Assembly: GCA_016186955.1 (NCBI GenBank)
Contig: JACPKP010000009.1
Span: forward strand, 225,595 to 289,594
Reading direction: 5' to 3'
Source: Candidatus Daviesbacteria bacterium
GTDB lineage: Bacteria; Patescibacteriota; Microgenomatia; Daviesbacterales; UBA10151
DNA length: 64,000 bases
Positions 29,874 through 58,350 of this stretch are shown here, piece after piece. Each line of letters begins with the position of its first letter. Positions within the stretch are counted from its first letter, which is position 1. The position numbers were made by a program, and so were the translations under genes. The notes below the pieces were generated by a model. It worked only from the letters and a program-made list of their open reading frames with translations, searched no databases and had not been told where the DNA came from.

Positions 29874-30862
29874 TAATCAGAAATATTATATATGATGCTT
29901 GAACCTGTTTTTTCAAATGCAAAAGGGACATGCAATAACTTATTAAATTTTCTTAAAAACTTTTTTTGCATTGAGGGTTCCACAAAGAAAACGATAAACC
30001 CACCACTGCCTGCTCCGAGTAGTTTACCCCCCAACGCACCAGCGCTGATGCCCTCACTGTAAATCTCATCAATTAACTGGTTACTTATATTAGAAGCCAG
30101 GCTTTTTTTAATTATCCAGTTTTCGTGTAGTAGTTTGCCTAAGGTTTGTGCAGAAAAATTAGTGCCGGTTAACTTTTCGTAAGCTTTGGCTGTAATTTTT
30201 GAAAGAGCATGAAGTTCATTAAATTTGTTTGGCGTATTTTTAATAAGTTGTGCTGAAATGTCCGAAGCTCTTCTCTGGAATCCGGTAAAGAACAAAAGTA
30301 TATATTTCTCAAGAGCTTGTATTCGCGACCTGGATATTGCTAAGGGTTCAACGATAATCTTTCCATTTTTTTGAAATAAAATTCTATTTAAGCCTCCGTG
30401 TGCAGCAATGGTTTGGTCCTGTGAACCTACATTTTCCTTAATTTTATTCTGTTCAATTTCTATGGCGTCTCTTGCCAGTTGTTGTTTTGAAACAGATTTT
30501 CCGAGTAAAGCGTATAAGGAATTTAAAAAACCGACTGTAAAGGATGAGCTGGATCCTAAACCTGACATTGCCGGCAAGTCACTGGTATGAACCATCTCAA
30601 TCCCGGAGTTAATATTTAAGAAGTTAAGCGTTTCTTTTACTGCTGGATGTCTGATCTGGTTTATGGACAAAGTTGTTTCCCTATGGGTATATCGGATCCT
30701 GTATTTATATGGGAAAAAAGGAGGGAGATAACGGGTAACAATATAACAATATTTATTGATTGAAGTGCTGATGACAGATCCACCAAATTTACGATACCAT
30801 ATTGGATAATCAGTTCCTCCCCCAAACAGGGAAATCCGGAATGGTGTTCTGGATATTACCAT
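29873..30862 (-). CDS. hddA: GHMP-family sugar kinase, HddA-like (D-glycero-alpha-D-manno-heptose 7-phosphate kinase)
   Basis: MVISRTPFRISLFGGGTDYPIWYRKFGGSVISTSINKYCYIV...DLPAMSGLGSSSSFTVGFLNSLYALLGK...GSQDQTIAAHGGLN lines up with HddA from Aneurinibacillus/Campylobacter (MIITKTPLRVSFVGGGTD...PSGTGLGSSSAF...GKQDQY). Confidence 0.75.
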   Translation of the reverse strand: MVISRTPFRISLFGGGTDYPIWYRKFGGSVISTSINKYCYIVTRYLPPFFPYKYRIRYTHRETTLSINQIRHPAVKETLNFLNINSGIEMVHTSDLPAMSGLGSSSSFTVGFLNSLYALLGKSVSKQQLARDAIEIEQNKIKENVGSQDQTIAAHGGLNRILFQKNGKIIVEPLAISRSRIQALEKYILLFFTGFQRRASDISAQLIKNTPNKFNELHALSKITAKAYEKLTGTNFSAQTLGKLLHENWIIKKSLASNISNQLIDEIYSEGISAGALGGKLLGAGSGGFIVFFVEPSMQKKFLRKFNKLLHVPFAFEKTGSSIIYNISD

Positions 30863-30871
30863 AAAGATTGT

Positions 30872-31855
30872 TTAAACAAATCTTTTTGCATAAAAGACAT
30901 TATATTTTTTGTTTATAACACTACGTTTTTTCAAAAACCAGTCAATCGTTTCTTTGATCCCTTCCTGTAAACTTACTTTAGGATTATAACCAATAGATTG
31001 TGCCCTTTGGATATCCATAATCCTCATCCTATCTCCGCTTTTTTTTGATTTATCCCAAATTACTTTAGGAGGTTTTTCAATACTTTCGCAAATTGTGCTC
31101 ACCAGCTCTTTTATTGTGACGCCGGTCCCGCTTCCTAAGTTTAAAGCGCTCCCATCAGCATGTTTCATTGCTAAAATCATCCCTTCAGCAACATCCCTTG
31201 AGAAAACAAAATCCCGTATTTCGGATCCGTCCCCCCAAACAGTAAGAGGATTTTCGCCGTCTAGGACCCTTCTGATTAGGGAGGGTACGACCATAGCGTT
31301 TTTAGGATCAAAATTATCATAAGGCCCGTAAGTGTTAGCCGGCCTGACTATTGTTGTTTTGTTCCAGCCAAACTCTATTTTATATGCTTCAACCTGCAAT
31401 TCCCCAACTCTTTTTGCCCATCCGCCAAACCAATCCTTATGGGAGGGGAATGTATGCCATACATCGTCCTCATGAAAAATTTTAGCAGGGCCATAGACTC
31501 CGACAGAGCTTGTGTAAAGATACCTTTTTACTCCACTGATCCGTGCTGCCTCCATCATATTAGTGTTGAACAAAACTCCTGGTACGAAGATACTTGCAAC
31601 TTTTTTTGTTGCGATTCCGGCAGATACTTTAATTCCTGCCAAATGAAAAACATAATCTATGCCGCGGCACGCTTTAATGCAATTATCATATGAAGTAAGA
31701 TTTAGTTTCTTAAACTCTACGTCTTTTGGCAAATCCTTATTCCGTTCCATTGAGACAACCCGGACTTTTGCACCCATTTTGTGAAGAATTTCTACAAGCT
31801 GCATTCCGATCATCCCAGTCCCGCCAGTAATAAGAATTTTTTTATTTTTATACAT
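30872..31855 (-). CDS. NAD-dependent epimerase/dehydratase (extended SDR; candidate GDP-heptose/hexose modifying enzyme)
   Basis: KKILITGGTGMIGMQLVEIL and a YGPAK-type YxxxK block (LYTSSVGVYGPAK). Confidence 0.65.
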   Translation of the reverse strand: MYKNKKILITGGTGMIGMQLVEILHKMGAKVRVVSMERNKDLPKDVEFKKLNLTSYDNCIKACRGIDYVFHLAGIKVSAGIATKKVASIFVPGVLFNTNMMEAARISGVKRYLYTSSVGVYGPAKIFHEDDVWHTFPSHKDWFGGWAKRVGELQVEAYKIEFGWNKTTIVRPANTYGPYDNFDPKNAMVVPSLIRRVLDGENPLTVWGDGSEIRDFVFSRDVAEGMILAMKHADGSALNLGSGTGVTIKELVSTICESIEKPPKVIWDKSKKSGDRMRIMDIQRAQSIGYNPKVSLQEGIKETIDWFLKKRSVINKKYNVFYAKRFV

Positions 31856-31863
31856 GTCTTTTC

Positions 31864-32535
31864 CTAGATTGAATTATTAAATAATTTGTCAAATACTGCA
31901 ACCCCGCGTAGTTGATTAATGCTTGTAATAATTTCATCTGCTTCTGTCAAAAACTCCTGACCCATAGTAGAAGAAACTGCAATACAGTATGCTCCAGCTT
32001 TTTTTGCAGACTTTATTCCCAAGGGTGCGTTTTCTATCACTAAACATTTTTTGATATCTACCGACAATAACTTTGCAGCTTTAAGATAAGGATCCGGGAA
32101 TGGTTTTCCTCTTTTGACTTGGTCACCGGTGATGATAACTTTAAATTTCTTTAAAAAATTTTCAGGTAGTGTTGAGTGTAACCTGTTGTAAAGACCGGCA
32201 GTAACTATGGCAAATGGAATATTTTTTGCGTGTAATAAATTTATTATACTTTTAACGCCCCGATAGAGTTGGAATTTATTGTTCTTCAAATATAGATCCT
32301 CCTTATTTTTAATAATATCTTCTACCAGCGACTTGTCTAACCCGGCCTTTTGGCAATATTTTTTTGCTAATTTTTCTAATTTCATCCCTTCGTAAGGAAA
32401 GTACTCTTGTGCGGAGATAGAAATATTGTATTTTTTCAGCGATTTCAACCAGGCTTTATAATTATCTTCCATTGTTTGGGCCAAAACACCGTCAAAATCA
32501 AACAAAACAGCCTGATATTTTTTTGATGGAATCAT
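31864..32535 (-). CDS. HAD-superfamily hydrolase, subfamily IA (beta-phosphoglucomutase/phosphatase-like)
   Basis: Motif I LFDFDGVLAQT, with later KPFPDPY-type and E-N-A motif III regions. Confidence 0.65.
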   Translation of the reverse strand: MIPSKKYQAVLFDFDGVLAQTMEDNYKAWLKSLKKYNISISAQEYFPYEGMKLEKLAKKYCQKAGLDKSLVEDIIKNKEDLYLKNNKFQLYRGVKSIINLLHAKNIPFAIVTAGLYNRLHSTLPENFLKKFKVIITGDQVKRGKPFPDPYLKAAKLLSVDIKKCLVIENAPLGIKSAKKAGAYCIAVSSTMGQEFLTEADEIITSINQLRGVAVFDKLFNNSI

Positions 32536-33045
32536 TTATTTGAAGAATTCAAGCGTATCACGCATCCACTGCGGAAGATATTTGTAATGAGGGCTTGTCA
32601 CAAGCTTACCGTCAATTACTGATGGAGCATCAATGTAATTAGCGCCCGCATTTTCTATGTCATCCCGAATACTGTAATATCCGGAGACTTTTTTCCCCTT
32701 GACAATTTTAGCCGATATTAACATTTGTGACCCGTGACAAATAGCGGCAATAACCTTTCCTGCTTTTGCAAATTTTGATATAAAATCAATCACAGTTTTT
32801 TCCTGGCGCAGATATTCCATACATTTTGCTCCTCCAGGAATGATTAGTAAATCATAGTCAGAAACCCTCAGATTGGTTGTATCTTTAGTAGGGACAACTT
32901 TAGTTCCGTTTACGCCGAGAACTATCTCTTTATTTTTAATAGCAACATCAACCTTGAACCCTGCTTCCTGAAGTCTGTAATAGGGGTATATATATTCATG
33001 GTCTTGCACATATTTGCCTGTTATAATTAAAGCCCTTTTTTTCAT
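32536..33045 (-). CDS. DJ-1/PfpI family protein (class I glutamine amidotransferase-like fold)
   Basis: A 169-aa protein with the nucleophile-elbow Cys in AAICHGSQML and the overall PfpI length and pattern. Confidence 0.6.
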   Translation of the reverse strand: MKKRALIITGKYVQDHEYIYPYYRLQEAGFKVDVAIKNKEIVLGVNGTKVVPTKDTTNLRVSDYDLLIIPGGAKCMEYLRQEKTVIDFISKFAKAGKVIAAICHGSQMLISAKIVKGKKVSGYYSIRDDIENAGANYIDAPSVIDGKLVTSPHYKYLPQWMRDTLEFFK

Positions 33046-33806
33046 ACAGCCTTTTTAATAAGCAAAGATTCATTTTCAGCAGAAGGGTTTAAGCTATGGT
33101 GTTTTTTCAAATCCCCAAATGAAATTATATCACCAGTGTCCAGGAGGCATGTTTGAGATCCATCGGTTATATTTCCTGTCAGAAGCACCAAAATATCGGG
33201 TTTTGATTGTTTAGTATGATTTATCAAGTGGTTGCTATCGGAAAACTTGACCAAGCTTAAAATACAGTCACCGAACTGTTTCTCTACCCCGTAACGTTTT
33301 TTACTATTATTAAATGATTGATATAATTTATTGTCAAGCTTTGAATAAAATTTTTCATCCTCATATCCTCTTCCTCGTCTTCCATATTTGTCGCTAAACC
33401 TGATTAAGTCCCTTTTGTTGGTCGGTGTTTCTGTTTCTATCACCAACAACCCATTGTTTGAGGTAACTGTTGTAGAATGAAATACTCCTTTGTTAATAAG
33501 CAATCCATGGCAAAGATTAAGTTTGTGGTTTCCACTGAGCGTTTCAACCCTAGCTTCGCCGGATAAAATAATAATAGAGGTTTTTTTATTAGGATGTGCG
33601 TGCATTGAAGTTTGGAAGTTGGGTTTTAAATAAAGCAGCCATACGGCGGTTTGGTTGTTGGAATAAATCAGATATTCATATCCCCATGGCTTTCTTATTA
33701 CCACATTTGAGTAGTCAAAAAAATTATCCAGGAGGTAATCAGGGTTTATTTTAATACTTGACATCTGTCTGATATCTTCGTCGGTTTGATCAATTTTTTT
33801 TACCAT
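33042..33806 (-). CDS. Metal-binding cupin domain protein (possible sugar isomerase/epimerase)
   Basis: Cupin motif 1 with HxH...E (TSMHAHPNKKTSIIILSGEARVE) and a second beta-rich C-terminal half (possible bicupin). Confidence 0.45.
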   Translation of the reverse strand: MVKKIDQTDEDIRQMSSIKINPDYLLDNFFDYSNVVIRKPWGYEYLIYSNNQTAVWLLYLKPNFQTSMHAHPNKKTSIIILSGEARVETLSGNHKLNLCHGLLINKGVFHSTTVTSNNGLLVIETETPTNKRDLIRFSDKYGRRGRGYEDEKFYSKLDNKLYQSFNNSKKRYGVEKQFGDCILSLVKFSDSNHLINHTKQSKPDILVLLTGNITDGSQTCLLDTGDIISFGDLKKHHSLNPSAENESLLIKKAV

Positions 33807-34746
33807 TGGAATTTATAATATATTCTACTGTCTTTACTATTTTACCTGTTGTAGGGGGGAGGTTGTCCAGATGGGGGGCAAATCCGGCAGACCGTTCTTC
33901 CAGTCCGAGCGTTTTGATTGGTTTAAATTTGTTGCCTGATCCGGTGAGTTTTTGGATTATGTCAAAAGCTAGACATTTCAAAGCTCCATTTTCAAAATCA
34001 CCGTCCAGTATCAGTCCTCCAAACCTGCTTTGATTGAGTGAAGCAATAATTTTTTTATTAATTACAAATGGCTTGAGCCATAGCAGATGTATAAGGTTAC
34101 AAACAATGCCATTTCCCTCTAAGGTTTTAACAGCTTCAATGGCGTTGATTCTAGTTGAAGAAATCGCAAATATAGTAACATCAGCTTTAGGTTTAATAAT
34201 ATCTTTCATGTCATAATCTATAGGGAAACTTTTTTTATGCTCACTGATGTACATCGGGTCATCGTGTTCCATAAAATAATTCCAAACCTGTTGGTATTCG
34301 TTGGGTGTCATGGGGGCACAAACAACAATTCCGGGCATCCTAATAAATATACTGTGGTGGCTACCGGATGCCACAGGCCCGATAGCTCCGTCCATGGCTA
34401 TTGAGCGCACAAAAATAGGGCAGGGAATTCCCCACATATCCTTTGATTTTGCTGCGTAATTGACAATGCTTGCAGCGTTGTACCACTGAAAACCCTGGTA
34501 TCTAACTATATAAATTGGCCTTCTGCCCGCTAAGGCCGCCCCTACAGCTATACCTCCGCCGGATACATCAGCCATTGATAATTCAACAAGGCCTTCTTTT
34601 TCACTTAAGTGAGGGATTGTACCACCGACCCAGCCAACAGCTGTTAGACATTGGCCTAATGCCAAACCGTTATTTTTTAACAGGTGATTTCTGGTTATTT
34701 GGCTTATTTTTTCTGCAACAGTCATTTTTTGAGTTGTTTCTTCCAT
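33790..34746 (-). CDS. Thiamine-diphosphate-dependent 2-oxoacid dehydrogenase E1 beta-subunit-like protein
   Basis: LSMADVSGGGIAVGAALAGRRPIYIV...NYAAKSKDMWGIPCPIFVRSIAMDGAIGPVASGSHHS...PGIVVCAPMTPNEYQQV aligns block-for-block with the PDH/BCKDH E1-beta Pyr domain. Confidence 0.65.
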   Translation of the reverse strand: MEETTQKMTVAEKISQITRNHLLKNNGLALGQCLTAVGWVGGTIPHLSEKEGLVELSMADVSGGGIAVGAALAGRRPIYIVRYQGFQWYNAASIVNYAAKSKDMWGIPCPIFVRSIAMDGAIGPVASGSHHSIFIRMPGIVVCAPMTPNEYQQVWNYFMEHDDPMYISEHKKSFPIDYDMKDIIKPKADVTIFAISSTRINAIEAVKTLEGNGIVCNLIHLLWLKPFVINKKIIASLNQSRFGGLILDGDFENGALKCLAFDIIQKLTGSGNKFKPIKTLGLEERSAGFAPHLDNLPPTTGKIVKTVEYIINSNGKKN

Positions 34747-35606
34747 AATTTATCAATAAATTCTTTCGTTTCCTGTTCGATCTTTAAAGCCTGTTTTTCT
34801 AACCCCAAATTTTTAAGATCTTCTTTGACTATTTTAAATCTGTCCCATTCTGGTTCGCTATCTTGTCCGGTGCCATTGTGCCAAAGCACCCTTGTTGTAT
34901 GGATATTTATAAAGCTAGGTAAATTTTTAGCAAGCTTTTTGACATGATGCATAATAAGCCAGGGATCATCGGTGATTTCTACCGCATCCATTCCAAATGC
35001 TTTTGCAACATTAACCATACTCCAGTTTCTTCTAACTGCGACTTTGGTTAAAATTGAAAGTCCATTATCAGTGCAAACAAACAAAACAGGAAGTTTTTTT
35101 GAAGCAGCATAGCCCATTGAACTTATCACATAGTCTTCTTCTGCCGAAGCATCCCCCATAATTGCCAAGACTTTTTGTTTTGACCCCAATGCATATCCTA
35201 CTGCGATTGGAATTTGGTCTCCCATAAGCCCGCTATGGCCAAACATGCCAATCTTCGGGGAATGAATTGATGCAGACCCACCCATGCCTTTGGCGATGCC
35301 GGAAGGCTTGTGCAGTAGTTCGTCAATTAAAGGGACAATTTCTCCCCCGAAAGCTAAATAAATATCATGGCATCTGTGTTGGGCAAAAATATGCGGTTTT
35401 TTATAAGCTATTGATATTGCTGATGAAACAGATTCTTCACCAACTGATAAATAAATCGGCATTTTAATATAACCTTTATCAAAGGCATCTTTGGTATTGA
35501 ATTCGAAATTGCGCGAGATGCACATTTTTTTAAACATCTCCAAAGACTCTTTCTTAGTAAAATGTTTTGAGATATTTTTGATTTCACCGAAGCTTTTTGA
35601 ACGCAT
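34722..35606 (-). CDS. Thiamine-diphosphate-dependent 2-oxoacid dehydrogenase E1 alpha-subunit-like protein (TPP-binding)
   Basis: KGMGGSASIHSPKIGMFGHSGLMGDQIPIAVGYALGSK...LAIMGDASAEEDYVISSMGYAASKKLPVLFVCTDNGLSI aligns with E1-alpha (KGKGGSMHMY...GGNGIVGAQVPLGAGIALA...YGDGAANQG...LPCIFICENNRYGMGT). It is overlapped and coupled with the beta subunit. Confidence 0.65.
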   Translation of the reverse strand: MRSKSFGEIKNISKHFTKKESLEMFKKMCISRNFEFNTKDAFDKGYIKMPIYLSVGEESVSSAISIAYKKPHIFAQHRCHDIYLAFGGEIVPLIDELLHKPSGIAKGMGGSASIHSPKIGMFGHSGLMGDQIPIAVGYALGSKQKVLAIMGDASAEEDYVISSMGYAASKKLPVLFVCTDNGLSILTKVAVRRNWSMVNVAKAFGMDAVEITDDPWLIMHHVKKLAKNLPSFINIHTTRVLWHNGTGQDSEPEWDRFKIVKEDLKNLGLEKQALKIEQETKEFIDKLWKKQLKK

Positions 35607-35657: not shown

Positions 35658-37001
35658 TTATGTTATTCCCAGATTCTCGAAACTATTATAAAGTTTTAAG
35701 TCTTGTTCACTATCGACTTCATACCAATTACCATTAATTGGTGTAGCAAAAATTTGTAACCCTGTCTTAATAAGCCTTTGCAACAGGGAAGTCATGTCCA
35801 GCTTATCATTGGTGTTTGGATCCAGTGATGCAAGATATTTTTTTATTTTTTTCCAACCGGAAGGGGTGATTTTTAGAAGCCCCATATATTGGCCCTCAAT
35901 ATTTTCAAATTTGTCGGTTTTGTTACCAATTTCCAGCAACACGCCATTTTTTATTTTAAATGTTTCTGCGTCATCTAAAGGATTATTAAATCTTTTTTTC
36001 CATAGATTAAACCAGTTTTTATCATAGGATATTGATACATTACCTTTTGATTTAAGAAGACTTTTCACTGCTTGTTCTGAATAAACAATATCCGAGTAAC
36101 TTATAATACAAGTATAACGGCTGAGCCATTTATCTGCGCACATTAACGAGCTTACCATATTGGTTTTCTTCCAGCGTGGATTGTTAAAAGTTTTTAGATT
36201 AAAGGGTTGTAGTTTTTTTGCTTGATAGCCTGATACTAATGCTATATCTTGGATACCGCCTTTTCTGAGTGCATTAAGCTGCCACTCAATTAGGGGTTTT
36301 CCTTTAAGCATTACTAAACATTTAGGCTTTTTAGCTGTCAATCTTTTCATCCTACTTCCCCGCCCGGCTGCAAGAATGATTGCTTTAGGCGCCTCATGTT
36401 TTTGGGACTCTAAAAAGAATGATTTGAATAAATTGACATTGTCTTTTCTAAATGGCTCCATTCTTTCGGGGTGCCACATAATTGCTTTTATTTTATATTT
36501 TGTATGCTCAATAGCTTTGATGACATTATCTTCTGACCTGGCCCAAACAGTCAGATCATCTGTTGTGTTTAAACTGCCCAAGCAGTGGTAGCTGTTGACA
36601 GTACTTTGTTTCCGGTTGATTGCTATCCTCTGTTTATTTGCAATGTGGCCCTGTACTATTATAAGTTTGACACCAAAATAATCCTGGATTATCTGCATGC
36701 CCCGGCAGACGCCAAAAAGAGGAATATTGTTTTTTATAGAATAAGAAATAAGATATCTTTCAACATCATCTCTTTCTGGTGCAGTTCCACCATATTTGGA
36801 CAGATCATTTCCTCCAGTAAGTAAAAAACCGCTTATTTTCAAGTTTTTAAGATAATTTTTTATTAAATCTATATTATTTGGTAAAAGAGCAGGAATTAGA
36901 TTACATTGAATAAAAAATTTATTCCAATTTTGGGACAGCGTATCCAGTCTTTCTCCGTGTTGGTTGATTACTACATTTTGGGTGACGCCTATAAATTCCA
37001 T
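35658..37001 (-). CDS. Fusion of a class-I glutamine amidotransferase-like hydrolase (Cj1417-like gamma-glutamyl-CDP-amidate hydrolase) to a LicC/MobA-like nucleotidyltransferase (Cj1416-like CTP:phosphoglutamine cytidylyltransferase)
   Basis: N-terminal 200 aa: a peptidase-C26/GATase-1 fold with nucleophile LFGVCRGMQ and an H-E dyad (MWHPER). C-terminal 245 aa: AIILAAGRGSRMKRLTAKKPKCLV (GxGxR sugar-phosphate nucleotidyltransferase motif). Confidence 0.65.
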   Translation of the reverse strand: MEFIGVTQNVVINQHGERLDTLSQNWNKFFIQCNLIPALLPNNIDLIKNYLKNLKISGFLLTGGNDLSKYGGTAPERDDVERYLISYSIKNNIPLFGVCRGMQIIQDYFGVKLIIVQGHIANKQRIAINRKQSTVNSYHCLGSLNTTDDLTVWARSEDNVIKAIEHTKYKIKAIMWHPERMEPFRKDNVNLFKSFFLESQKHEAPKAIILAAGRGSRMKRLTAKKPKCLVMLKGKPLIEWQLNALRKGGIQDIALVSGYQAKKLQPFNLKTFNNPRWKKTNMVSSLMCADKWLSRYTCIISYSDIVYSEQAVKSLLKSKGNVSISYDKNWFNLWKKRFNNPLDDAETFKIKNGVLLEIGNKTDKFENIEGQYMGLLKITPSGWKKIKKYLASLDPNTNDKLDMTSLLQRLIKTGLQIFATPINGNWYEVDSEQDLKLYNSFENLGIT

Positions 37002-37005
37002 TGGA

Positions 37006-39336
37006 TTATGATACTATTTTTACTTGCTTGTTAATACAATCTATTTCTAAAAACCGGGAGGATGAAAGATTAGAAAATAAAGTTTCTCCTGTCCCGATAA
37101 CAGCCGGTATACCCAACTCTCCCGCCCGGATCGCCATATGAGAATTAATACCTCCATACATAGTGATAAATCCGGCGATTTCGTGAGAGAAAATCCAATC
37201 ATACCCAGGATCGGCGCTTGGAATAAGTAAAATACTTTTTTTAATTTTTTTTAAATCCTGATTGGAGAAAGCAACATGCCCCTTGGCTGTTTGGTTAGTA
37301 ATAAAATTGGGATGAGATGGAGCGATATGGAAGGACCAAATATCTTCTGCGCTTTTTATTAACGGGGGAAGAATTATGTTGCTCGTTATTGAAAAATTTC
37401 TTTTTCCTTCTTCTATCGATTGCAACATCACATTTTTTTTATCAAAGCTTGATGTGTATAACTTCTTGATACAGTTAATGTCTAAAAATGCTAAATCTGT
37501 ATCACTGATGGAATATGAGGCGCCCAGGTTTTGAAGCAGGGACAAAAGATCGCTTAGCGAATAGGTAAAAATAAATTTAGCATACTCCCTGCCGTAGATT
37601 GCTTCTTTTATAAAATCAAATATCCCCAGGATATTGTGATCAATCCCATGCTTGTTTAAATATCGGTCTATTTGTTTTAGTTGTTCCAATGATAGACTGA
37701 ATTTACTTTTTTGCTCGGGGGGCCTTTTAAATTTTTTAAAATCAAAATATTTGTTTGGTTCTTCATCATAACGCTTGGATAAAATATCATAAGTTCCAGG
37801 ACGCAGGTGCCCATATTTTTTTAAAAAGTTTTTTTTGGACAACTTATTTAAATCCTTATTCATTTGGGAACTGATCGAATCTATTGAAAGCATAAAATTA
37901 TCATAATCTGCTTGGGATAGAATTTTCTCGGTAACTAATGATTTTAAAAGCTGGACAGCTATAAAGCCTGCCCTGGCAAGTCCTGCAAAAGGTAAGGTCC
38001 CATACCTCTTGCAATCCTCTAGCAGCCAATAAATTTTTGAAACAATGTCTAATTCGCTACCCAATATAGTTTTACGTCTTCTTTCAAGTTGATTAATTTT
38101 TTCAAGGTCTGTCCGCCAAAGCCCGGTTTTATTGTTAATAATCTGATTAGTTAGTGTCCTGAGACTTTCAATTAAGGATTTACATTCTTCGTTTGAGAAT
38201 CCGTCTTTTTTTAATAAATTTATTTTTGTATCTAAATCAAAAGTGTAACAAGAATAGACTATTTCAAATTCAATTTTATCATGAAGATTGGGTTGTTTAA
38301 TCAGTTTTTTTAAATAATAGTTAACTAATTTCTCAGCCAAATTTTGGTTCACTGTGGATGGTATAAAAGAGTTGAAATCAACTCTGACATCAATGTAGGG
38401 AAGTCCATGAAAATCTACTAATAGAGGAAAACTCCTTAAATTCTTATATCCATAATTATGTCTTTGGTAAGCCCAAATACCGTCCGTTATCAGTTCTTTG
38501 TATAGAGATAGCGCTAAAGGTTTGGGTCTGATACCAATAATTTCTGCAGGATTCCAGTCTGGCATGATACCGAACACCGTTTTTGATCCGCAAAGATAAG
38601 GATGTTTTCGGCTTAGGTCCCCAATTTTGTTATCTACTTCCACTAATACACTTGAAAGTTGGTCTATGTCCACATCCATTTTTATGAAACTGTTAAGAGG
38701 ACGGGCTTGCAAAAGATAGAGATGGTTTTGATAATCCAAAGCGAATTCAATATCCAAACTGTCAGATTTTGTTATTGACTCTAACTCAAAAATTAAATTA
38801 ATAATTTTTACTAACCTTATGGGAGCTTTTTTGGAGGAGTATTTATAAAAATAGTATGTTTTTAACTTATTTGATTTTCCTGAAGTTACAGAATCTGTCG
38901 ATCCTGTTTGGTCATCGTAGTTTATTACAATGTATGGACTTCCTGTATTTGGATCTTTACTAAAAGCTACACCTGACATCATGATATTTTTAAAATTAAG
39001 ATATGGTTGTATAAAAACTTGATTTTTTGGATTTTGATCAAAAGAGGAGATAACTTTTTCTATCGCTTCGTTTATCTTCGGTATACCTACAATATTTTGT
39101 ATAGAGGTATAGCGGCCTGCCAGAGACTGGTTAACACTGTCTTCATTGACTGCGCTACTTCGGATAATTAATTTTTTTTTACCCCACCCCTTTTTTTTGA
39201 TTTTTTCTAAAATATGGTTTTTTTTATCTATCCAGTCACCAACGGAAAAACTAATTTGTGGTAAGACCCGAGCCTTTTTCAGCAGCAGAGAAAGTTTTTG
39301 AAGCGTTTCCGCCTTTGTCACAAAAAAGTCATTCAT
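37006..39336 (-). CDS. PEP-synthase/PPDK/rifampin-phosphotransferase-like ATP-dependent kinase, Cj1418-like (candidate L-glutamine kinase)
   Basis: 776 aa. The C-terminal PEP-utilising mobile domain has a catalytic His (ITMYGGINSHMAIRAGELGIPAVIGTGE) about 40 residues from the C-terminus, as in Cj1418 (His737). There is a large N-terminal ATP-grasp/PPDK_N-like region. Confidence 0.65.
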   Translation of the reverse strand: MNDFFVTKAETLQKLSLLLKKARVLPQISFSVGDWIDKKNHILEKIKKKGWGKKKLIIRSSAVNEDSVNQSLAGRYTSIQNIVGIPKINEAIEKVISSFDQNPKNQVFIQPYLNFKNIMMSGVAFSKDPNTGSPYIVINYDDQTGSTDSVTSGKSNKLKTYYFYKYSSKKAPIRLVKIINLIFELESITKSDSLDIEFALDYQNHLYLLQARPLNSFIKMDVDIDQLSSVLVEVDNKIGDLSRKHPYLCGSKTVFGIMPDWNPAEIIGIRPKPLALSLYKELITDGIWAYQRHNYGYKNLRSFPLLVDFHGLPYIDVRVDFNSFIPSTVNQNLAEKLVNYYLKKLIKQPNLHDKIEFEIVYSCYTFDLDTKINLLKKDGFSNEECKSLIESLRTLTNQIINNKTGLWRTDLEKINQLERRRKTILGSELDIVSKIYWLLEDCKRYGTLPFAGLARAGFIAVQLLKSLVTEKILSQADYDNFMLSIDSISSQMNKDLNKLSKKNFLKKYGHLRPGTYDILSKRYDEEPNKYFDFKKFKRPPEQKSKFSLSLEQLKQIDRYLNKHGIDHNILGIFDFIKEAIYGREYAKFIFTYSLSDLLSLLQNLGASYSISDTDLAFLDINCIKKLYTSSFDKKNVMLQSIEEGKRNFSITSNIILPPLIKSAEDIWSFHIAPSHPNFITNQTAKGHVAFSNQDLKKIKKSILLIPSADPGYDWIFSHEIAGFITMYGGINSHMAIRAGELGIPAVIGTGETLFSNLSSSRFLEIDCINKQVKIVS

Positions 39337-39344
39337 AATTTATC

Positions 39345-39391
39345 TCGATAAAACCCCGACCGTTAAGTCGTAGGTAGATTCATTTTATCGA
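39345..39391 (-). promoter_or_regulatory. Nested inverted repeat (possible intra-operon RNA stem-loop / processing or attenuation site)
   Basis: A perfect 9-bp IR tcgataaaa ... ttttatcga (39345-39353 / 39383-39391) encloses an inner GC hairpin cgac-cgttaa-gtcg (39357-39370). It spans the MTase stop codon and the 43-bp gap before the Gln-kinase-like gene. Confidence 0.2.
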
Positions 39392-40138
39392 TTGGACTGT
39401 CCAGGCACGTGTTTTGTAAGCTGTTCGAATAAGGTTTTTACTGGATATAATTTTGGAAATTTCTTTTAAAATTTTTTGAAAAATTAATTTTCCTGCCTGG
39501 ACTTGGATGTCGTTTACAGATCTCCAGACCCCTAAGTATCTCTCTTTGGACATCAATTCAAAATGAGGAGCCTCCATAAAAACTAAATTTTTAAATTTTT
39601 TTCCGGAAGTTAAAACCTCCCCCCAGTTTTTTGTATTAGTTTGGGACCCTGAAGAAACTCTTTTAAGATTTGGAATAAAATTTTTAATAATTAATTCCAC
39701 AGCTTTTTCTACCTCGCTTTTTTCAATATCTCTCGGGTTCCACAAAATTGTAAGAAAACCGCCTGGTTTAAGTATACGGTAAAACTCCTTTAAGGCTTTT
39801 TTAGAATCTGCCCAATGGAAAGAAGAGGCCATCATAACCCAATCTACAGATGAATTTTTGAGACCTGTATCTTCTGCAATTCCTTTAGACCACATAAAGT
39901 TTTTTACAGACTTTTCACCTATTATCCTCATGTTGTTGCTTGGTTCAACTGCAAACCCCCCAATCCCAAAACAATCTAACATTGAGGTTAATTTACCTGT
40001 TCCAGCCCCAATGTCCGCAACAACAAAGCCCTCTTTTAGGGCGCCTATATAAGAGATAAGTGTTTTAATAATTATGGGAGAATAGCCTGGCCTGTTTGAA
40101 TAGTACTTTGCAAGAATAGAAAAATCTCCGTGTTTCAT
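39380..40138 (-). CDS. Class I SAM-dependent methyltransferase (candidate phosphoramidate O-methyltransferase)
   Basis: Motif I VVADIGAGTGKLT. It sits between the CysC-like and Gln-kinase-like genes and is coupled to both. Confidence 0.65.
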   Translation of the reverse strand: MKHGDFSILAKYYSNRPGYSPIIIKTLISYIGALKEGFVVADIGAGTGKLTSMLDCFGIGGFAVEPSNNMRIIGEKSVKNFMWSKGIAEDTGLKNSSVDWVMMASSFHWADSKKALKEFYRILKPGGFLTILWNPRDIEKSEVEKAVELIIKNFIPNLKRVSSGSQTNTKNWGEVLTSGKKFKNLVFMEAPHFELMSKERYLGVWRSVNDIQVQAGKLIFQKILKEISKIISSKNLIRTAYKTRAWTVQSIK

Positions 40139-40644
40139 TTTAATTTTAAAACTTGACGTACAATTTCATCAGGTAATTTTTTACCGTCATTTTTAATGAC
40201 CATATCGGGATTTAAAGGTATTTCTGGTTTTATGTCAACCCCTACTACATCTTTAATTTTTCCTGCATGATATTTTTTATATATTTTCTTGAGGTCTCTG
40301 CCAAATAAAACTTTCTTAGGAGCTGTAAGATAAATTTCCTTATAATTTTTAATAAACCTTCTATTCCAATTATGGCAATCATGGAAAAGGGAAATCGTTG
40401 CGCAGACAACATCTAACCCTTGATCTGAAAGCATTTTGCAAATCCTTGAATAAGTTTTAGCTAGTATCCTGCGGTCATTTATAGTGTGACTATGGAGATT
40501 ACCGAAAACCTTTCTCAGCTTATCTCCATCTAAATAAACTACGTTTTTACCGGAAGCCTGCAGTTTTTTATACAGTGCAAATCCAACTGTAGTTTTTCCG
40601 GTTCCGGAGATTCCGGTAATCCACCAAACAACCCCTTTTTTCAT
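40135..40644 (-). CDS. Adenylylsulfate (APS) kinase-like P-loop kinase, Cj1415-like (candidate cytidine diphosphoramidate 3'-kinase)
   Basis: VVWWITGISGTGKTTVGFAL...VYLDGDKLRKVF...RRIL is collinear with CysC (VIWLTGLSGSGKSTLA...LDGDNIR...RR). Confidence 0.7.
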   Translation of the reverse strand: MKKGVVWWITGISGTGKTTVGFALYKKLQASGKNVVYLDGDKLRKVFGNLHSHTINDRRILAKTYSRICKMLSDQGLDVVCATISLFHDCHNWNRRFIKNYKEIYLTAPKKVLFGRDLKKIYKKYHAGKIKDVVGVDIKPEIPLNPDMVIKNDGKKLPDEIVRQVLKLK

Positions 40645-41987
40645 CAGTTTATAGGTAATAGCTTTACCATAACTTGTTTTTTATTATAAAGATCAAACCA
40701 TGCTTTATAAGCCCAAAAACGGATAGCAAAATAATCCCTAATAATTAGTATTAAAAAGACAATAACCAGTATTGGTGTAAAGATTATAATAAATATAGCC
40801 AAAAGTATTTTTATCGCTACGGGATACTTTTGATAAACAGATATAACTTGTGTTGCCAAACTACTGTCAATGCTTCTTATGATAAACATTACCTTCTTTT
40901 GCGAGAGTTTAATTTGTTTTTGTGTGAAAAAAACAAGACGTTCTTTTAAAAGAGAAAACTCTGTTTTAAAAGGTAAAGCTAATGTTAAAAAAACAAATAG
41001 CTTGAGTAATTTATTTCTATACATATTACTTATTTTATACTCCCAATGCTTATACTTAGGATATGCTAGGCACAGCAGCCGAAATTGGTCAAAGCTGTTT
41101 AAATAACTTATTTTTCTATCAATAGTCTGGATTCCGATGCCGGAAATTCTTGGTGACTCAGGTCTATTCCACCATTTCTTACCGTCAAAAGTACTCTCCA
41201 AAAGATGGTTGTCCCAGGGAAGGTTTAACCATTTGCAGATTGCTCTCAAGGTCTCTTTATTTTTTTGGTGTAAATCTTCTAAACGGACCGCTTTTGAGAA
41301 TTTAGTGTAACTACTAAAAAAGGGTCTGAAACCATAGACATAGCGCTCCTCCTTTTTTCCCCAAAGTTGCATGTAATCACAAAGCATTTGAGAAACAGTG
41401 CATTCTAGAGTATTTACCGGAAGATTATTGAACAGGATGTGTTTAATCCCGGAGTTGATAGATGGGATGGGCGCCCTAACCATGTGCAGGAATTTTGCTT
41501 TGGGAAAATCAGATAAAAGATATTGAGCATGTTTTTTGGGTAGGCTGTGAATAGGAAAGAAGATTACTTTTGGTTGATGAATTTTTCTACCTAAAGCATA
41601 GGCATAAGAGAGGTAGGTAGCAATAAAAAAATTTTTTCTGGATGGATAAATTTTGCCCAAAAGATTTTTTAATAAACCACTAAAATGTTTTTCTTTAATA
41701 CAGACAGATTGATTCATTCTGGGTCCAAGCTGGTTTAGACCATGGCTTTCGGGAGCGCCTTTTTTAGTAAACCAATATTTATGATAGTCGGTAAAAGCAT
41801 TAATTAATTCCTCTGATCTAGAATACCTTTTACCATAACTTTCCCAAAAAGCAAAAAAAGATCTGCTATATAGGGCTGGAGTCATTAAAACTTTTGGGTG
41901 ATTGTCAAACAAGCTATGTAAAAAAAGGGTGCCACTGGAGCCATAGTTTTGGACAGCTACAACTGAGATATTTTTTGGAATTCTCAT
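40644..41987 (-). CDS. Sulfotransferase-fold protein with a C-terminal membrane anchor (candidate phosphoramidate transferase, or a genuine sulfotransferase)
   Basis: The N-terminal 5'-PSB-like P-loop VQNYGSSGTLFLHSLFDNHPKV resembles PRSGTTLLHxLLxxHPxV of Sulfotransfer_3 enzymes. The C-terminus has 2 TM segments (LKLFVFLTLALPF..., AIKILLAIFIIIFTPILVIVFLILII). Confidence 0.5.
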   Translation of the reverse strand: MRIPKNISVVAVQNYGSSGTLFLHSLFDNHPKVLMTPALYSRSFFAFWESYGKRYSRSEELINAFTDYHKYWFTKKGAPESHGLNQLGPRMNQSVCIKEKHFSGLLKNLLGKIYPSRKNFFIATYLSYAYALGRKIHQPKVIFFPIHSLPKKHAQYLLSDFPKAKFLHMVRAPIPSINSGIKHILFNNLPVNTLECTVSQMLCDYMQLWGKKEERYVYGFRPFFSSYTKFSKAVRLEDLHQKNKETLRAICKWLNLPWDNHLLESTFDGKKWWNRPESPRISGIGIQTIDRKISYLNSFDQFRLLCLAYPKYKHWEYKISNMYRNKLLKLFVFLTLALPFKTEFSLLKERLVFFTQKQIKLSQKKVMFIIRSIDSSLATQVISVYQKYPVAIKILLAIFIIIFTPILVIVFLILIIRDYFAIRFWAYKAWFDLYNKKQVMVKLLPIN

Positions 41988-42898
41988 AAAATATTTTTGT
42001 TGTACCAGGTAATAGTTTTTTTGATGCCATCTTCAATCTTTGTTTTTGGAACCCAGTTAAATACTTTTTTACAGTAGGAAGTGTCCATTACTTTATAAGG
42101 TGACCCATCAGGTTTTGAAGTATCGAAAACTAACTTTCCTCTAAAACCAGCAGCAACTTGAATCATCAAGGCAAGTTTTTTTATGGAAATTCCAATTCCT
42201 GAAGAGATATTAATAGGGAAAGGATCTGTACGGGTTTTGATTGATTTGATAAATGCTTCAACAAGGTCATCTACATAGACCCAATCCCTCACCGGTTTAC
42301 CGCTTCCCCAGACGGTAACTTCTTTTAAAGAGTTTTCTTTTGCATCCATAATTTTTCTGATAAGCGCACCCAGGGCATAAGATTTTTCGGGGTCAAAATA
42401 ATCATCGGGCCCGTAAACATTTCCTACAATCAAGTTTGAGTACTGTATTCCAAACTGTCTGTTAAATGCCATGGAATTAATATATGTATGCCTGCTGGTT
42501 GAGCCTATGACTAGGACCGATTCATGCATTGGGCCATTTCCCCAGAACTGTTCTTTCAAGAGACCATTATTTACCGGTGGGTAAGCTGAATTTGATAATA
42601 TATTAATTAATTTTTCAACCCCTGATAGTCTGGCGGATTCCTGAAGATTTAAACTAACTAAAGTGTTATTTATAAATATTTCCCCCGGATGTTTGTTGAC
42701 ATAGGAAATACCTCCGGTATCTATTGCGCAATTTATTATTATTTGAGGTTTTTGTTTTTTAAAGAATATTTTAGCTTGGTTAAGGTTTTTAAAATTAATT
42801 TTACCTGAGGTTATAACATTATAACCTCTGGTTTTTAATATTTTTACAGTTCTTTTGCCAATAAATCCGCCTGCTCCGGCAACGAAGATTCTTTTCAT
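41984..42898 (-). CDS. fcl: GDP-L-fucose synthase-like (Fcl/WcaG family) NDP-4-keto-6-deoxy-sugar epimerase/reductase
   Basis: MKRIFVAGAGGFIGKRTVKIL...LNQAKIFFKKQKPQIIINCA parallels the E. coli Fcl N-terminus (KQRIFIAGHRGMVG...LLDSRAVHDFF...IDQVYLAA). It has a short Rossmann start and is about 300 aa. Confidence 0.6.
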   Translation of the reverse strand: MKRIFVAGAGGFIGKRTVKILKTRGYNVITSGKINFKNLNQAKIFFKKQKPQIIINCAIDTGGISYVNKHPGEIFINNTLVSLNLQESARLSGVEKLINILSNSAYPPVNNGLLKEQFWGNGPMHESVLVIGSTSRHTYINSMAFNRQFGIQYSNLIVGNVYGPDDYFDPEKSYALGALIRKIMDAKENSLKEVTVWGSGKPVRDWVYVDDLVEAFIKSIKTRTDPFPINISSGIGISIKKLALMIQVAAGFRGKLVFDTSKPDGSPYKVMDTSYCKKVFNWVPKTKIEDGIKKTITWYNKNIL

Positions 42899-43861
42899 TT
42901 ACAGAATATTTTCCATATACCAACGGATAGTTTTATTAATTCCTTCATCGATACCGATCTTTGGTGCCCAGTGGAATTTTTTTCTGGATTTTGAGATGTT
43001 TATGGAGAGTTTAGTGGGGATTGTAGGTTTTGAAATATCATAAAAGATATTTAATCTTTTTCCTGATATGGCAATAATCTTTTTGACTAAATTTGCAATA
43101 GAAATTGATTTCCCAAGTCCTAAGTTAAAAACATCATAATCATAATCCTGTTTTTTAAGTACTAGTTCAATAAAACTGACCAAGTCTGAAACATATAATA
43201 GATCTCTTTCTTCTTCACCCTTACCCCAAACATTTATTTTATCTCCATCCTTGGCAGTTAACACCTTGGTGATTGTAGCCCCAAATACGTGAGATTTATC
43301 CAAATCATATTTATCATAAGGCCCGTAGATATTACTGTGGCGGATTACAGTAAATTTTGACCTTTTTAACCGAGAATAAAATTCACAAAGTTTTTCTACA
43401 TAAACCTTCATCCATCCGCCGCCAAAATAACTTGTGTACATTGGTACATTAAGATCTAAGTCAGTTTCTTTCACCGGTTTGCCGGTATTTGGTTGGTACA
43501 TTACAGTGCAGCTTAAAAAAATTACCTGGGGGATTGAATGGTCGTATGCTGCCTGCAAGAGCATAGAGTTCATGATTAAATTATTGGTGATATGGATGTA
43601 AGGCCTGGTGATTATGTCTTTTGCACCAGAAGTTACTGCAGCTGCCTGAATTAATACATCAAAGCCTTTGGTAATCCCGGAGACCTGATTTTTATTGGTG
43701 AGATCTGCCTTAATTAATTTCGGATTTTTAGAAAATTTGTTAGTATGGTATGTTCCATATACATCAAGGCCTTTTTTTTTGGATAGTTCCTCGAATAAAT
43801 TCCTGCCAATGAAACCGCTAGCCCCGCAAATTAACACCCGCCTTTTTTTCAAATATGGCAT
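42899..43861 (-). CDS. NAD-dependent nucleotide-sugar epimerase/dehydratase (extended SDR)
   Basis: VLICGASGFIGRNLFEEL. The track start at 43930 overlaps the divergent plus-strand gene, so the internal Met (MPYLKKRRVLICGASG) at 43861 is preferred. This is the first gene of the 16-gene minus-strand operon. Confidence 0.65.
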   Translation of the reverse strand: MPYLKKRRVLICGASGFIGRNLFEELSKKKGLDVYGTYHTNKFSKNPKLIKADLTNKNQVSGITKGFDVLIQAAAVTSGAKDIITRPYIHITNNLIMNSMLLQAAYDHSIPQVIFLSCTVMYQPNTGKPVKETDLDLNVPMYTSYFGGGWMKVYVEKLCEFYSRLKRSKFTVIRHSNIYGPYDKYDLDKSHVFGATITKVLTAKDGDKINVWGKGEEERDLLYVSDLVSFIELVLKKQDYDYDVFNLGLGKSISIANLVKKIIAISGKRLNIFYDISKPTIPTKLSINISKSRKKFHWAPKIGIDEGINKTIRWYMENIL

Positions 43862-43924
43862 CCTTATTGCAGAGTATATAACAAAGAGCAGGCTAAGCCA
43901 AGGACTGATATAATAGTACCCAAG

Positions 43925-44500
43925 ATGCATAGTTTGATTGTTTTAGCAGGTTTACCAGGCACTGGCAAAACAACGGCAGCAAAATATTTAACCCAAGTCT
44001 TAAACTATAAATATATCGACCAAAATAGTATCAGGAGACAATTTGGTTTTAAAAAAATGCCCAAAACCCAAGATAAAATTTTAAGAACTATTGATCAACA
44101 AATCTTAAAATATTTAACTTTAAAAGAAGGTGTTGTTGTTGATTCAGTCCATAGGTTCTCGTTCAGAAGGCAACAGCTTTATGGTATAGCATCTAGTTGC
44201 GATGCGAACGTTATAATCATAGAAGTTATTTGTCCTCAAGTTTTAGCAAAAGAGAGAATTAGAAAAAGGCCAAAGTCTGACGGTTTATTGTCTGACCCCA
44301 ATCAAATTAGAGTTTATGACAAGCTAAAAAATTTATGGGAAGAGATAGATATTGATTTTAAATATCCAGGCAACAGTCATGTATCTTACATTCAATTTGA
44401 CAGCAGTTTGCCAAAAGTAAATAGAAAATTGATTACTTCAGGTATGAATAAATTAATTAATGGGATAGAAAAAACGCTTTTAAATATTAACCGATGTTAA
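43925..44500 (+). CDS. P-loop NTPase kinase (AAA_33/zeta-toxin/CPT-like small kinase)
   Basis: Walker A at residues 8-15 (LAGLPGTGKTTAAKYL). 191 aa. The substrate is unknown. Confidence 0.45.
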   Translation: MHSLIVLAGLPGTGKTTAAKYLTQVLNYKYIDQNSIRRQFGFKKMPKTQDKILRTIDQQILKYLTLKEGVVVDSVHRFSFRRQQLYGIASSCDANVIIIEVICPQVLAKERIRKRPKSDGLLSDPNQIRVYDKLKNLWEEIDIDFKYPGNSHVSYIQFDSSLPKVNRKLITSGMNKLINGIEKTLLNINRC

Positions 44501-45147
44501 ATATTTTCCGGAAAATAAAAGCAGTAGGTTTTGATTTAGATAGGACACTATATAAAGAGAATCCACAAGTTGCCAATAAGATTAAAGTCAGTTTAGTTAA
44601 TAAAGTCTTAAACAAAAAACCAGAATTGAAGTCATTTAAGGAAGCTGAAGAATTTTATGATAAGTTATATATGGCCATTGGAAGTAATACGCAAACTTTA
44701 AGAAAAATAGGTTTTGTTAATGCAGAACAGATTATGTATGAATGTTTGTCAAATGCCGATATATCAGAATTTTTATCTCATGATGACAGACTTTGTAAGT
44801 TATTCAGTAAACTACAAAAAAAATATTGGCTTTTTTTAATTTCAACTAAACCGTCAGATTTAGCAAAAAAGGCTTTAATTAAATTGGGGCTAAGTCCGGA
44901 TATTTTTAAATTCTGTATTCATGGTGACAATCCTCAAGCCAAAACCAAAACAGATGGTTTAATGTTTAAATACTTGTTAAAACTATCTAAACTGGTTCCC
45001 GGAAAACATGTCTATATAGGAGATAGTTTAAAAGCGGATATATTACCTGCTAAAAACTTGGGGATTTTAACTATCGCTGTGGGGGATATTAACGAGGCAA
45101 ACGCTAAAATTTCCAATATTTATGAAATCGAAAATCTGTTACTTTAA
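44494..45147 (+). CDS. HAD-superfamily hydrolase
   Basis: Motif I VGFDLDRTLY, a later lysine, and a GDSLKAD-type motif IV (YIGDSLKADI). Confidence 0.55.
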   Translation: MLNIFRKIKAVGFDLDRTLYKENPQVANKIKVSLVNKVLNKKPELKSFKEAEEFYDKLYMAIGSNTQTLRKIGFVNAEQIMYECLSNADISEFLSHDDRLCKLFSKLQKKYWLFLISTKPSDLAKKALIKLGLSPDIFKFCIHGDNPQAKTKTDGLMFKYLLKLSKLVPGKHVYIGDSLKADILPAKNLGILTIAVGDINEANAKISNIYEIENLLL

Positions 45148-58310: not shown

Positions 58311-58350
58311 AATTTAAGTGAAACTAACACTATGATATTATCATAGAATT

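Follow-up and report, generated by a model that had tools for sequence, protein, structure and literature searches.

Phosphoramidate decoration of glycans has been studied in Campylobacter, where it bears on serum resistance, phage recognition and vaccine design, and to our knowledge it has been studied nowhere else. The reaction chemistry of the biosynthetic steps up to 3'-phospho-CDP-amidate reportedly comes from published work on C. jejuni. Reviews have called the glutamine kinase of this pathway C. jejuni-specific or known from Campylobacter only, and a 2025 paper from the Raushel laboratory treated reconstitution of transfer and methylation as future work (PMC12409886). Here we analysed a 64,000-nucleotide stretch (hereafter the window) of contig JACPKP010000009.1 from a Candidatus Daviesbacteria bacterium, in which five minus-strand open reading frames (ORFs) at 35658-41987 encode six functions that map onto the O-methyl phosphoramidate (MeOPN)-type pathway of C. 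jejuni. We consider it probable, at roughly 0.75, that this five-gene, six-function cassette makes a phosphoramidate, probably O-methylated, and transfers it onto a cell-surface glycan. An earlier note on this DNA had proposed a MeOPN-type pathway on six consecutive minus-strand genes; the strand was borne out, the pathway mapping was supported and every motif it quoted was found in place, while the number of ORFs proved to be five. The predicted pathway assignment is well supported by orthology, by common family models and by catalytic residues, as set out below.

Domain and family calls came from Pfam and NCBIfam profile scans, and the roles of the enzymes in the biosynthetic steps were assigned by orthology to the C. 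jejuni enzymes. MeOPN loci were retrieved from genome contigs with the wobble-degenerate cj1420 primer CS-1246, published in PMC3907429, which gave six Campylobacter loci; primer CS-1247 had no exact match in the genome contigs. Locus L007 (C. jejuni GP013), which holds a complete Cj1420-like through Cj1415-like gene set, was used as the reference for comparison. By BLAST, every C. jejuni cassette protein found the expected ORF as its top window match, including each of the four biosynthetic enzymes Cj1415-Cj1418, for which the identities were 34-45%. When the PDB was searched by sequence, neither the glutamine kinase nor the fusion protein nor the small kinase met a chain of Cj1415-Cj1418; the matches were generic superfamily members.

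The L-glutamine kinase homologue (37006-39336, minus strand, 776 aa) scored 986.1 bits on NF004508/PRK05849 (cutoff 501, E 1e-296, aligned over residues 4-775), a model on which the C. jejuni L007 homologue scored 1173.1 bits, and it was 44.9% identical to the Cj1418-like protein across 779 aa, that is, over its full length. Its domain order runs from an N-terminal ATP-grasp domain through a family-specific middle region to a C-terminal phospho-His swivel domain, in which GGINSHMAIRAGELGIP occupies residues 728-744. The swivel His733 (NSHMAI) aligned to His737 of the C. jejuni homologue, which we take to be the phospho-carrier residue reported for Cj1418. Full-length identity, the high score on the common model and the kept swivel His agree with the proposal that this protein is the Cj1418 counterpart.

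Two further functions reside in one 447-aa fusion protein (35658-37001, minus strand). Its N-terminal domain (approximately residues 1-200, 36402-37001) has the class-I amidotransferase/peptidase C26 fold (Peptidase_C26, E 1e-20) and is a homologue of gamma-glutamyl-CDP-amidate hydrolase; its C-terminal domain (approximately residues 201-447, 35658-36401) matched NTP_transf_3 (E 1e-16) as well as NTP_transferase and is a homologue of CTP:phosphoglutamine cytidylyltransferase. The motifs GVCRGMQ, MWHPER and LAAGRGSRM lie at residues 97-103, 175-180 and 210-218, and Lys226 is present as well. The top NCBIfam match of the amidotransferase domain was NF045546, the gamma-glutamyl-CDP-amidate hydrolase model (129.8 bits, E 1.3e-37, model positions 2-190 of 198), and its identity to the Cj1417-like protein was 34.3% (E 2e-29). 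Residues Cys99, His177 and Glu179 were kept in all seven aligned cassette homologues, within GxCRGxQ and MWHxER motifs. This top match, although below cutoff, together with the identity and the Cys-His-Glu triad upholds the assignment as the Cj1417 counterpart. No curated Cj1416 model was found in NCBIfam; the nucleotidyltransferase domain was 39.7% identical to the Cj1416-like protein over 247 aa (E 6e-56), as expected of a Cj1416 counterpart, whereas the other nucleotidyltransferase in the window (29163-29873) matched it over only 63 aa. The two-domain fusion is rare but recurrent, most relatives being stand-alone proteins of about 250 aa.

The 169-aa small kinase (40135-40644, minus strand), a predicted cytidine diphosphoramidate 3'-kinase of Cj1415 type, carries the Walker A motif GISGTGKTT at residues 11-19, LDGDKLR at residues 38-44 and the family-specific TISLF, so the Walker A and LDGD motifs anticipated in this CysC homologue are both there. 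Walker A, LDGD and a TIS[LM][FW] motif were kept across seven cassette homologues of the kinase. It scored 173.9 bits on NF004041/PRK05541 (cutoff 127) and 110.3 bits on TIGR00455, the model of genuine adenosine 5'-phosphosulfate (APS) kinases, whose cutoff is 138.7. The Cj1415-like protein of C. jejuni behaved likewise, with 290.6 bits on PRK05541 and a sub-cutoff 126.9 bits on TIGR00455, and was 40.1% identical to the small kinase (E 2e-40). The same pattern of passed and failed models in both organisms, along with this identity, sustains the reading of the small kinase as the Cj1415 counterpart.

Between the small kinase and the glutamine kinase lies a gene for an S-adenosylmethionine-dependent methyltransferase of Cj1420/Cj1419 type (39380-40138, minus strand, 252 aa; Pfam family Methyltransf_11), a predicted O-methylase of the phosphoramidate. 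It was 47.5% identical to the Cj1420-like protein (E 7e-80) and 36.6% identical to the Cj1419-like protein (E 9e-46), in line with the resemblance claimed for it before.

The fifth ORF encodes a 447-aa Sulfotransfer_3 protein (40644-41987, minus strand; 53.5 bits, cutoff 27, E 5e-14), which from its modelled fold is a candidate phosphoramidate transferase using 3'-phospho-CDP-amidate. Its AlphaFold2 model had a predicted local distance difference test (pLDDT) score of 94.1, and all significant Foldseek matches in the PDB were sulfotransferases that use 3'-phosphoadenosine 5'-phosphosulfate (PAPS), among them TPST1/2 and the CurM sulfotransferase domain (E 2.5e-6, probability 1.0). Since 3'-phospho-CDP-amidate mimics PAPS, a sulfotransferase fold fits the role of transferase. 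The family keeps R171, P173, S179 and H183 (window numbering), with R171 and S179 at what we infer to be the position of the 3'-phosphate-binding motif; the 5'-phosphosulfate loop, read by eye, has a YGxSG[ST] consensus in which x is variable, and the usual Lys/Arg does not appear to be conserved. A strongly hydrophobic segment at approximately residues 388-420 suggests a C-terminal membrane anchor. The subfamily is small (55 matches), and seven of the eight members examined, that of the window included, directly adjoin a glutamine-kinase cassette. The C. jejuni transferase also models as sulfotransferase-like, and the motif VR[DA]PIxxxxSxxxH is common to the window and Campylobacter transferase families, R171/S179/H183 putatively corresponding to C. 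jejuni R335/S343/H347. A sulfotransferase-like core and an Arg...Ser 3'-phosphate-type motif thus occur in both transferases, which we use as a working resemblance and not as a published defining feature. Literature searches turned up no paper that connects MeOPN or glutamine kinase to a sulfotransferase.

Taken together, these assignments outline a pathway in which, by analogy with C. jejuni, the C-terminal half of the fusion protein would convert glutamine phosphate and CTP to CDP-L-glutamine, and the N-terminal half, with Cys99/His177/Glu179, would hydrolyse CDP-L-glutamine to cytidine diphosphoramidate and glutamate, the fusion possibly channelling the intermediate between the two steps. 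The 169-aa kinase would then phosphorylate the 3'-OH to give 3'-phospho-CDP-amidate, a PAPS look-alike. A membrane-anchored sulfotransferase-fold protein would bind this donor through Arg171/Ser179 and pass the phosphoramidyl group to a sugar hydroxyl, presumably with release of cytidine 3',5'-bisphosphate, and the methyltransferase would O-methylate the phosphoramidate before or after transfer.

Compared with the Campylobacter Cj1415-Cj1422 locus, the window cassette has a counterpart for each of the four biosynthetic enzymes, as well as for the Cj1419/Cj1420 methyltransferases, at 34-47% identity and with catalytic residues kept. The hydrolase precedes the cytidylyltransferase in both systems, both stand in a surface-glycan setting with HddA/HddC-like and GDP-sugar-modifying genes, and the transferases of both model as sulfotransferase-like. 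The two loci differ in that hydrolase and cytidylyltransferase are fused in the Daviesbacteria cassette, that it has one methyltransferase instead of two, and that its small kinase lies upstream of the methyltransferase and glutamine kinase, whereas the Campylobacter kinase comes last, after the cytidylyltransferase. In place of a protein of about 600 aa of the DUF2972/CJJ1420 family there is a 447-aa Sulfotransfer_3 protein with a putative C-terminal membrane anchor, no poly-G phase-variation tracts were seen, and the host is a Patescibacteria/Microgenomates organism of the candidate phyla radiation (CPR). Two observations on the Campylobacter side may be recorded here. In the atypical strain C. 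jejuni subsp. jejuni 414 (L009 838-2238) a truncated MeOPN-transferase-like ORF is directly preceded by a gene for a Cj1415-like kinase, unlike in L007, and the precomputed Pfam annotation of Campylobacter MeOPN transferases (P0176-P0295) places a new family, PF28160, N-terminal to DUF2972.

The cassette can equally be set beside the PAPS pathway of ATP sulfurylase, CysC, sulfotransferase and CysQ, with which it shares a nucleotide-activated group, 3'-phosphorylation by a CysC-fold kinase, predicted transfer by a sulfotransferase-fold protein and, in some cassettes, a CysQ-type nucleotidase. It departs from that pathway in that the activated group would come from glutamine kinase, cytidylyltransferase and hydrolase instead of ATP sulfurylase, and in that its kinase belongs to the Cj1415 subfamily and falls under the APS-kinase cutoff.

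We found at least 7,776 proteins homologous to the glutamine kinase at E <= 1e-10, in many phyla. The best 120 of these at least 7,776 were all full-length and 52-59% identical, with hosts in Clostridium, Nitrospina, Elusimicrobia, Omnitrophica, Myxococcota and Deltaproteobacteria; several homologues are already labelled 'glutamine kinase' by JGI, and a 2024 preprint predicted a MeOPN-like cluster in archaeal Borg elements. The earlier statement that the pathway is characterised essentially only in Campylobacter therefore holds for the biochemistry and fails for the genes.

A cassette order of sulfotransferase-like protein, APS-kinase-like protein, methyltransferase, glutamine kinase, amidotransferase, in some cases an Inositol_P protein, and nucleotidyltransferase recurred in environmental genomes. 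Such cassettes were found in an Elusimicrobiota member (L028), a Deltaproteobacterium (L029), a metagenome contig (L030), Clostridium sp. MB40-C1 (L031 1-22346, CP133189.1), Nitrospina as a stand-alone six-gene unit (L032), a 6.3-Mb genome (L035), a Gammaproteobacteria metagenome-assembled genome (L036 4870-15080, GCA_001801485.1) and a TARA ocean contig in which the sulfotransferase-like gene is present as two paralogues (L038). Their gene content is as in the window and their order nearly so, with the methyltransferase again between the small kinase and glutamine kinase in L028-L032, L035 and L036; amidotransferase and nucleotidyltransferase, unlike in the window, are separate genes. Their glutamine kinases were 44-59% identical to that of the window and their sulfotransferase-like proteins 31-43%, or 18% in Nitrospina. 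The window proteins are nearer to such environmental homologues than to C. jejuni, as for the kinase (55-59% against 45%), and judged on sequence comparison these cassettes are those most nearly related to the one in the window.

Gene fusions tie the components of the cassette together. The glutamine kinase occurs fused to an APS-kinase-like domain (e.g. P0056, P0090), the sulfotransferase-like domain is likewise fused to an APS-kinase-like domain (P0126, P0127), amidotransferase, nucleotidyltransferase and glutamine kinase form a triple fusion of about 1,260 aa (P0325, P0337, P0362, P0397), and a nucleotidyltransferase is joined to a methyltransferase (P0298). In addition, genes for CysQ-type 3'(2'),5'-bisphosphate nucleotidases lie inside the cassettes of L028 (15523-16296) and L030 (7217-7969), scoring about 225 bits on TIGR01331 (cutoff 228.8), and an Inositol_P-family gene lies inside that of L036 (9300-10094). 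Such genes are expected if transfer releases a 3',5'-bisphosphonucleotide by-product. The Inositol_P gene of the window (46933-47718, minus strand), 5 kb upstream of the cassette, was considered as a CysQ partner and rejected as unproven in that role, with scores of 132 bits for HisN, 106 for inositol monophosphatase and 94 for CysQ.

Several results weigh against the full scheme, most of them concerning the transferase, which was assigned on the grounds of fold, gene neighbourhood and fusions. The sulfotransferase-like protein matched neither NF058596 (CJJ1420_fam, O-methyl phosphoramidate transferase) nor DUF2972, and had no NCBIfam match at E <= 0.01, whereas the C. jejuni transferase P0290 scored 775 bits on NF058596 and C. 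jejuni transferases also match DUF2972. No BLASTP match connected the sulfotransferase-like protein with the C. jejuni MeOPN transferase, and hhalign of the two families gave probabilities of 10-20%, the best (20%, P 0.001) around one motif only. Sequence homology of the two transferase families is accordingly not established, and the resemblance is at the level of fold only. The C. jejuni transferase model itself reached a pLDDT of 71.9 overall, with its core mostly above 80. One member of the window subfamily, in a Rickettsiales endosymbiont (L037), is accompanied by a methyltransferase alone, a cassette being absent within 8 kb. As regards the other components, the window Inositol_P gene is not clearly CysQ-like, and the amidotransferase domain, at 129.8 bits, falls under the NF045546 equivalog cutoff of 250, where the Cj1417-like protein of C. 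jejuni scored 330.7 bits; this cutoff appears to be tuned to Campylobacter-like sequences. The assignment as a whole is drawn from sequences and models.

Some of the same evidence can be read as ordinary sulfation, with the small kinase as a true APS kinase making PAPS, the Sulfotransfer_3 protein sulfating a glycan and the remaining genes serving an unrelated product. The Pfam matches to APS_kinase (E 9e-30) and Sulfotransfer_3 point that way, the PDB relatives of the small kinase in the sequence search were all APS kinases, the fold search gave PAPS sulfotransferases only, and NCBI names the protein 'sulfotransferase'. We nevertheless regard sulfation as very improbable, because the small kinase lies under the TIGR00455 cutoff and over that of PRK05541 exactly as the C. 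jejuni enzyme does, and shares with Cj1415-like proteins a TIS[LM][FW] motif where APS kinases have SP[YF]. The combination that the earlier note had set against its own proposal, a true APS kinase together with ATP sulfurylase, was not seen: no ATP sulfurylase was found by profile scans among 59 of the 70 window ORFs of at least 100 aa, the other 11 being terminal ORFs, including 62581-63192 and 63182-63769, and short ORFs overlapping longer genes. Sulfation also leaves the fusions of glutamine kinase to the small kinase, and the sulfotransferase-like gene that accompanies the whole cassette across phyla, to be explained. In L036, a cassette that retains its own small kinase and Sulfotransfer_3 gene adjoins a Sulfotransfer_1 gene and a genuine fusion of ATP sulfurylase with APS kinase, a separate and complete PAPS synthase, which is a further point against the sulfation reading. 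Still less credit is due to the reading of the 776-aa protein as a phosphoenolpyruvate (PEP) synthase or pyruvate phosphate dikinase (PPDK) among unrelated sugar genes, which the data already effectively refute. An identical NCBI protein is named 'phosphoenolpyruvate synthase', and the 776-aa protein does resemble the PEP synthase/PPDK/rifampin phosphotransferase superfamily in its N-terminal ATP-grasp and phospho-His swivel domains (PPDK_N and PEP-utilizers in Pfam). Those were its only Pfam domains, however: the PEP/pyruvate-binding PEP-utilizers_C domain was not found, and a family-specific region of about 450 residues replaces the PEP/pyruvate TIM-barrel domain. Family models of the superfamily gave marginal scores, those for PEP synthase and PPDK at most 56 bits against cutoffs of 598-1063, set against 986 bits on PRK05849 and 45% full-length identity to the C. 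jejuni glutamine-kinase homologue, so the grouping with PEP synthases or PPDKs that the earlier note had raised as a challenge did not occur.

A more serious alternative, though in our view an unlikely one, keeps the Campylobacter-like biosynthesis and changes its end: the product could be an unmethylated phosphoramide, methylation could occur elsewhere, or a different transferase could act, with the sulfotransferase-like protein binding or hydrolysing a nucleotide. Phosphoramide without O-methyl occurs in Xanthomonas and Shewanella lipopolysaccharide, as cited in PMC3907429, even in C. jejuni the role of the methyltransferases awaits demonstration in vitro, and a 2025 paper (PMC12409886) still described transfer and decoration as open. 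A methyltransferase, in the window 47% identical to the Cj1420-like protein, is however invariant in the cassettes. With respect to the transferase, the sulfotransferase-like protein stands outside the Campylobacter transferase family and the same island encodes many glycosyltransferases, yet its gene is the sole other invariant non-biosynthetic member of the cassette. Moreover, its domain is at times fused to the donor-forming kinase, it is at times duplicated in a manner recalling the paired Campylobacter transferases (L038), and the Campylobacter transferase itself models as sulfotransferase-like.

Because the sulfotransferase fold matches a PAPS-like donor and also appears in the Campylobacter transferase model, one mechanism could cover both systems. 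We lean slightly towards a general form of this idea, in which a widespread sulfotransferase-fold family would comprise general bacterial phosphoramidate transferases that use 3'-phospho-CDP-amidate as PAPS is used, with CysQ-type clearance of the by-product in some lineages and the Campylobacter transferases as a divergent branch of the fold. If so, glycans with P-N decoration, such as those of Clostridium flagellin and of CPR surfaces, would be common in the environment and extend beyond Campylobacter. The biosynthetic genes are widespread, in the window and in relatives from at least seven other lineages, and outside Campylobacter they accompany a compact sulfotransferase-fold protein, so that the transfer step, hitherto missing, now has a concrete candidate. 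The novelty claimed in the earlier note was overstated, and the part worth following is the conserved but undescribed sulfotransferase-fold partner, with the CysQ-type partner in some lineages. Annotation of the cassette genes as 'phosphoenolpyruvate synthase', 'adenylyl-sulfate kinase' or 'sulfotransferase' is probably in error. L036 offers a natural side-by-side of phosphoramidate-type and sulfation systems, and Clostridium sp. MB40-C1 is a tractable organism for tests. In this cultivable organism, the complete cassette and its sulfotransferase-like gene lie between flagellin genes, in a flagellin-glycosylation island, which suggests a phosphoramidate-modified flagellin glycan.

The cassette ORFs overlap by 1-4 nt or are spaced by at most 43 nt, and they lie within a co-directional run of 16 genes extending from 43930 to 28297, in which no two neighbours are more than 51 nt apart and several overlap by 1-4 nt. 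The flanking genes of this operon provide a lead to the acceptor. HddC-like and HddA-like enzymes are encoded at 29163-30862 (minus strand), with GDP-heptose enzymes as their best NCBIfam matches (150 and 157 bits), and three short-chain dehydrogenases/reductases (SDRs) resembling GDP-fucose synthase at 30872-31855 and 41984-43930 (minus strand); a protein resembling GDP-mannose 4,6-dehydratase is encoded at 49683-50675 (minus strand), all of these scores being below cutoff. The operon also includes a haloacid dehalogenase (HAD) phosphatase and a cupin (28297-33806 region, minus strand). A split pair of transketolase-like, thiamine pyrophosphate (TPP)-dependent E1 alpha and beta subunits at 33790-35606 (minus strand) directly follows the cassette on its downstream side; its product may be a branched sugar or one extended by two carbons. 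E1/transketolase-type TPP genes adjoin the cassettes of L028 (2772-4756), L029 (8276-9902) and L035 (1094-2146; in the stretch read, a beta-type subunit only), and similar SDR genes flank the same three cassettes. Campylobacter capsule loci likewise have heptose-modifying genes beside the MeOPN genes, and here the flanking operon genes probably supply the acceptor as a GDP-activated heptose-like or deoxy sugar, which we offer as a lead only.

Nearly the whole 64-kb window is a glycan-biosynthesis island, as read from profile scans of its ORFs, so this genome-reduced CPR bacterium devotes at least 60 kb to elaborate glycan synthesis. The island encodes PMT-like, GT1, GT2 and GT4 glycosyltransferases, an ABC-2 exporter pair, a Wzx-like flippase, aminotransferases, many SDR epimerases/dehydratases and methyltransferases. 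No tRNA genes or Rfam features were found in searches across the window, and several island ORFs of 261-535 aa, at 25334-26278, 48931-49728, 52838-55187 and 56889-59907, had no Pfam match at the thresholds used. At the head of the operon lies a divergent plus-strand gene pair (43925-45147) encoding a 191-aa P-loop kinase (AAA_33/KTI12-like) and a 217-aa HAD hydrolase. The kinase gene (43925-44500) was considered as a second Cj1415-like gene and rejected, the similarity being that of the P-loop only (26% over 109 aa).

A second assembly, GCA_964526115.1, carries a tandem duplication of a 6.1-kb segment corresponding to window 35877-41995, nearly the whole cassette, and the copy of the fusion gene at the duplication junction is truncated to 378 aa. 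This duplication may reflect genuine copy-number polymorphism, or it may have arisen during assembly. The contig concerned (CAZGIJ010000002.1; L033 1-22331) is 99.99% identical to the window, and the full 447-aa fusion ORF was called there too.

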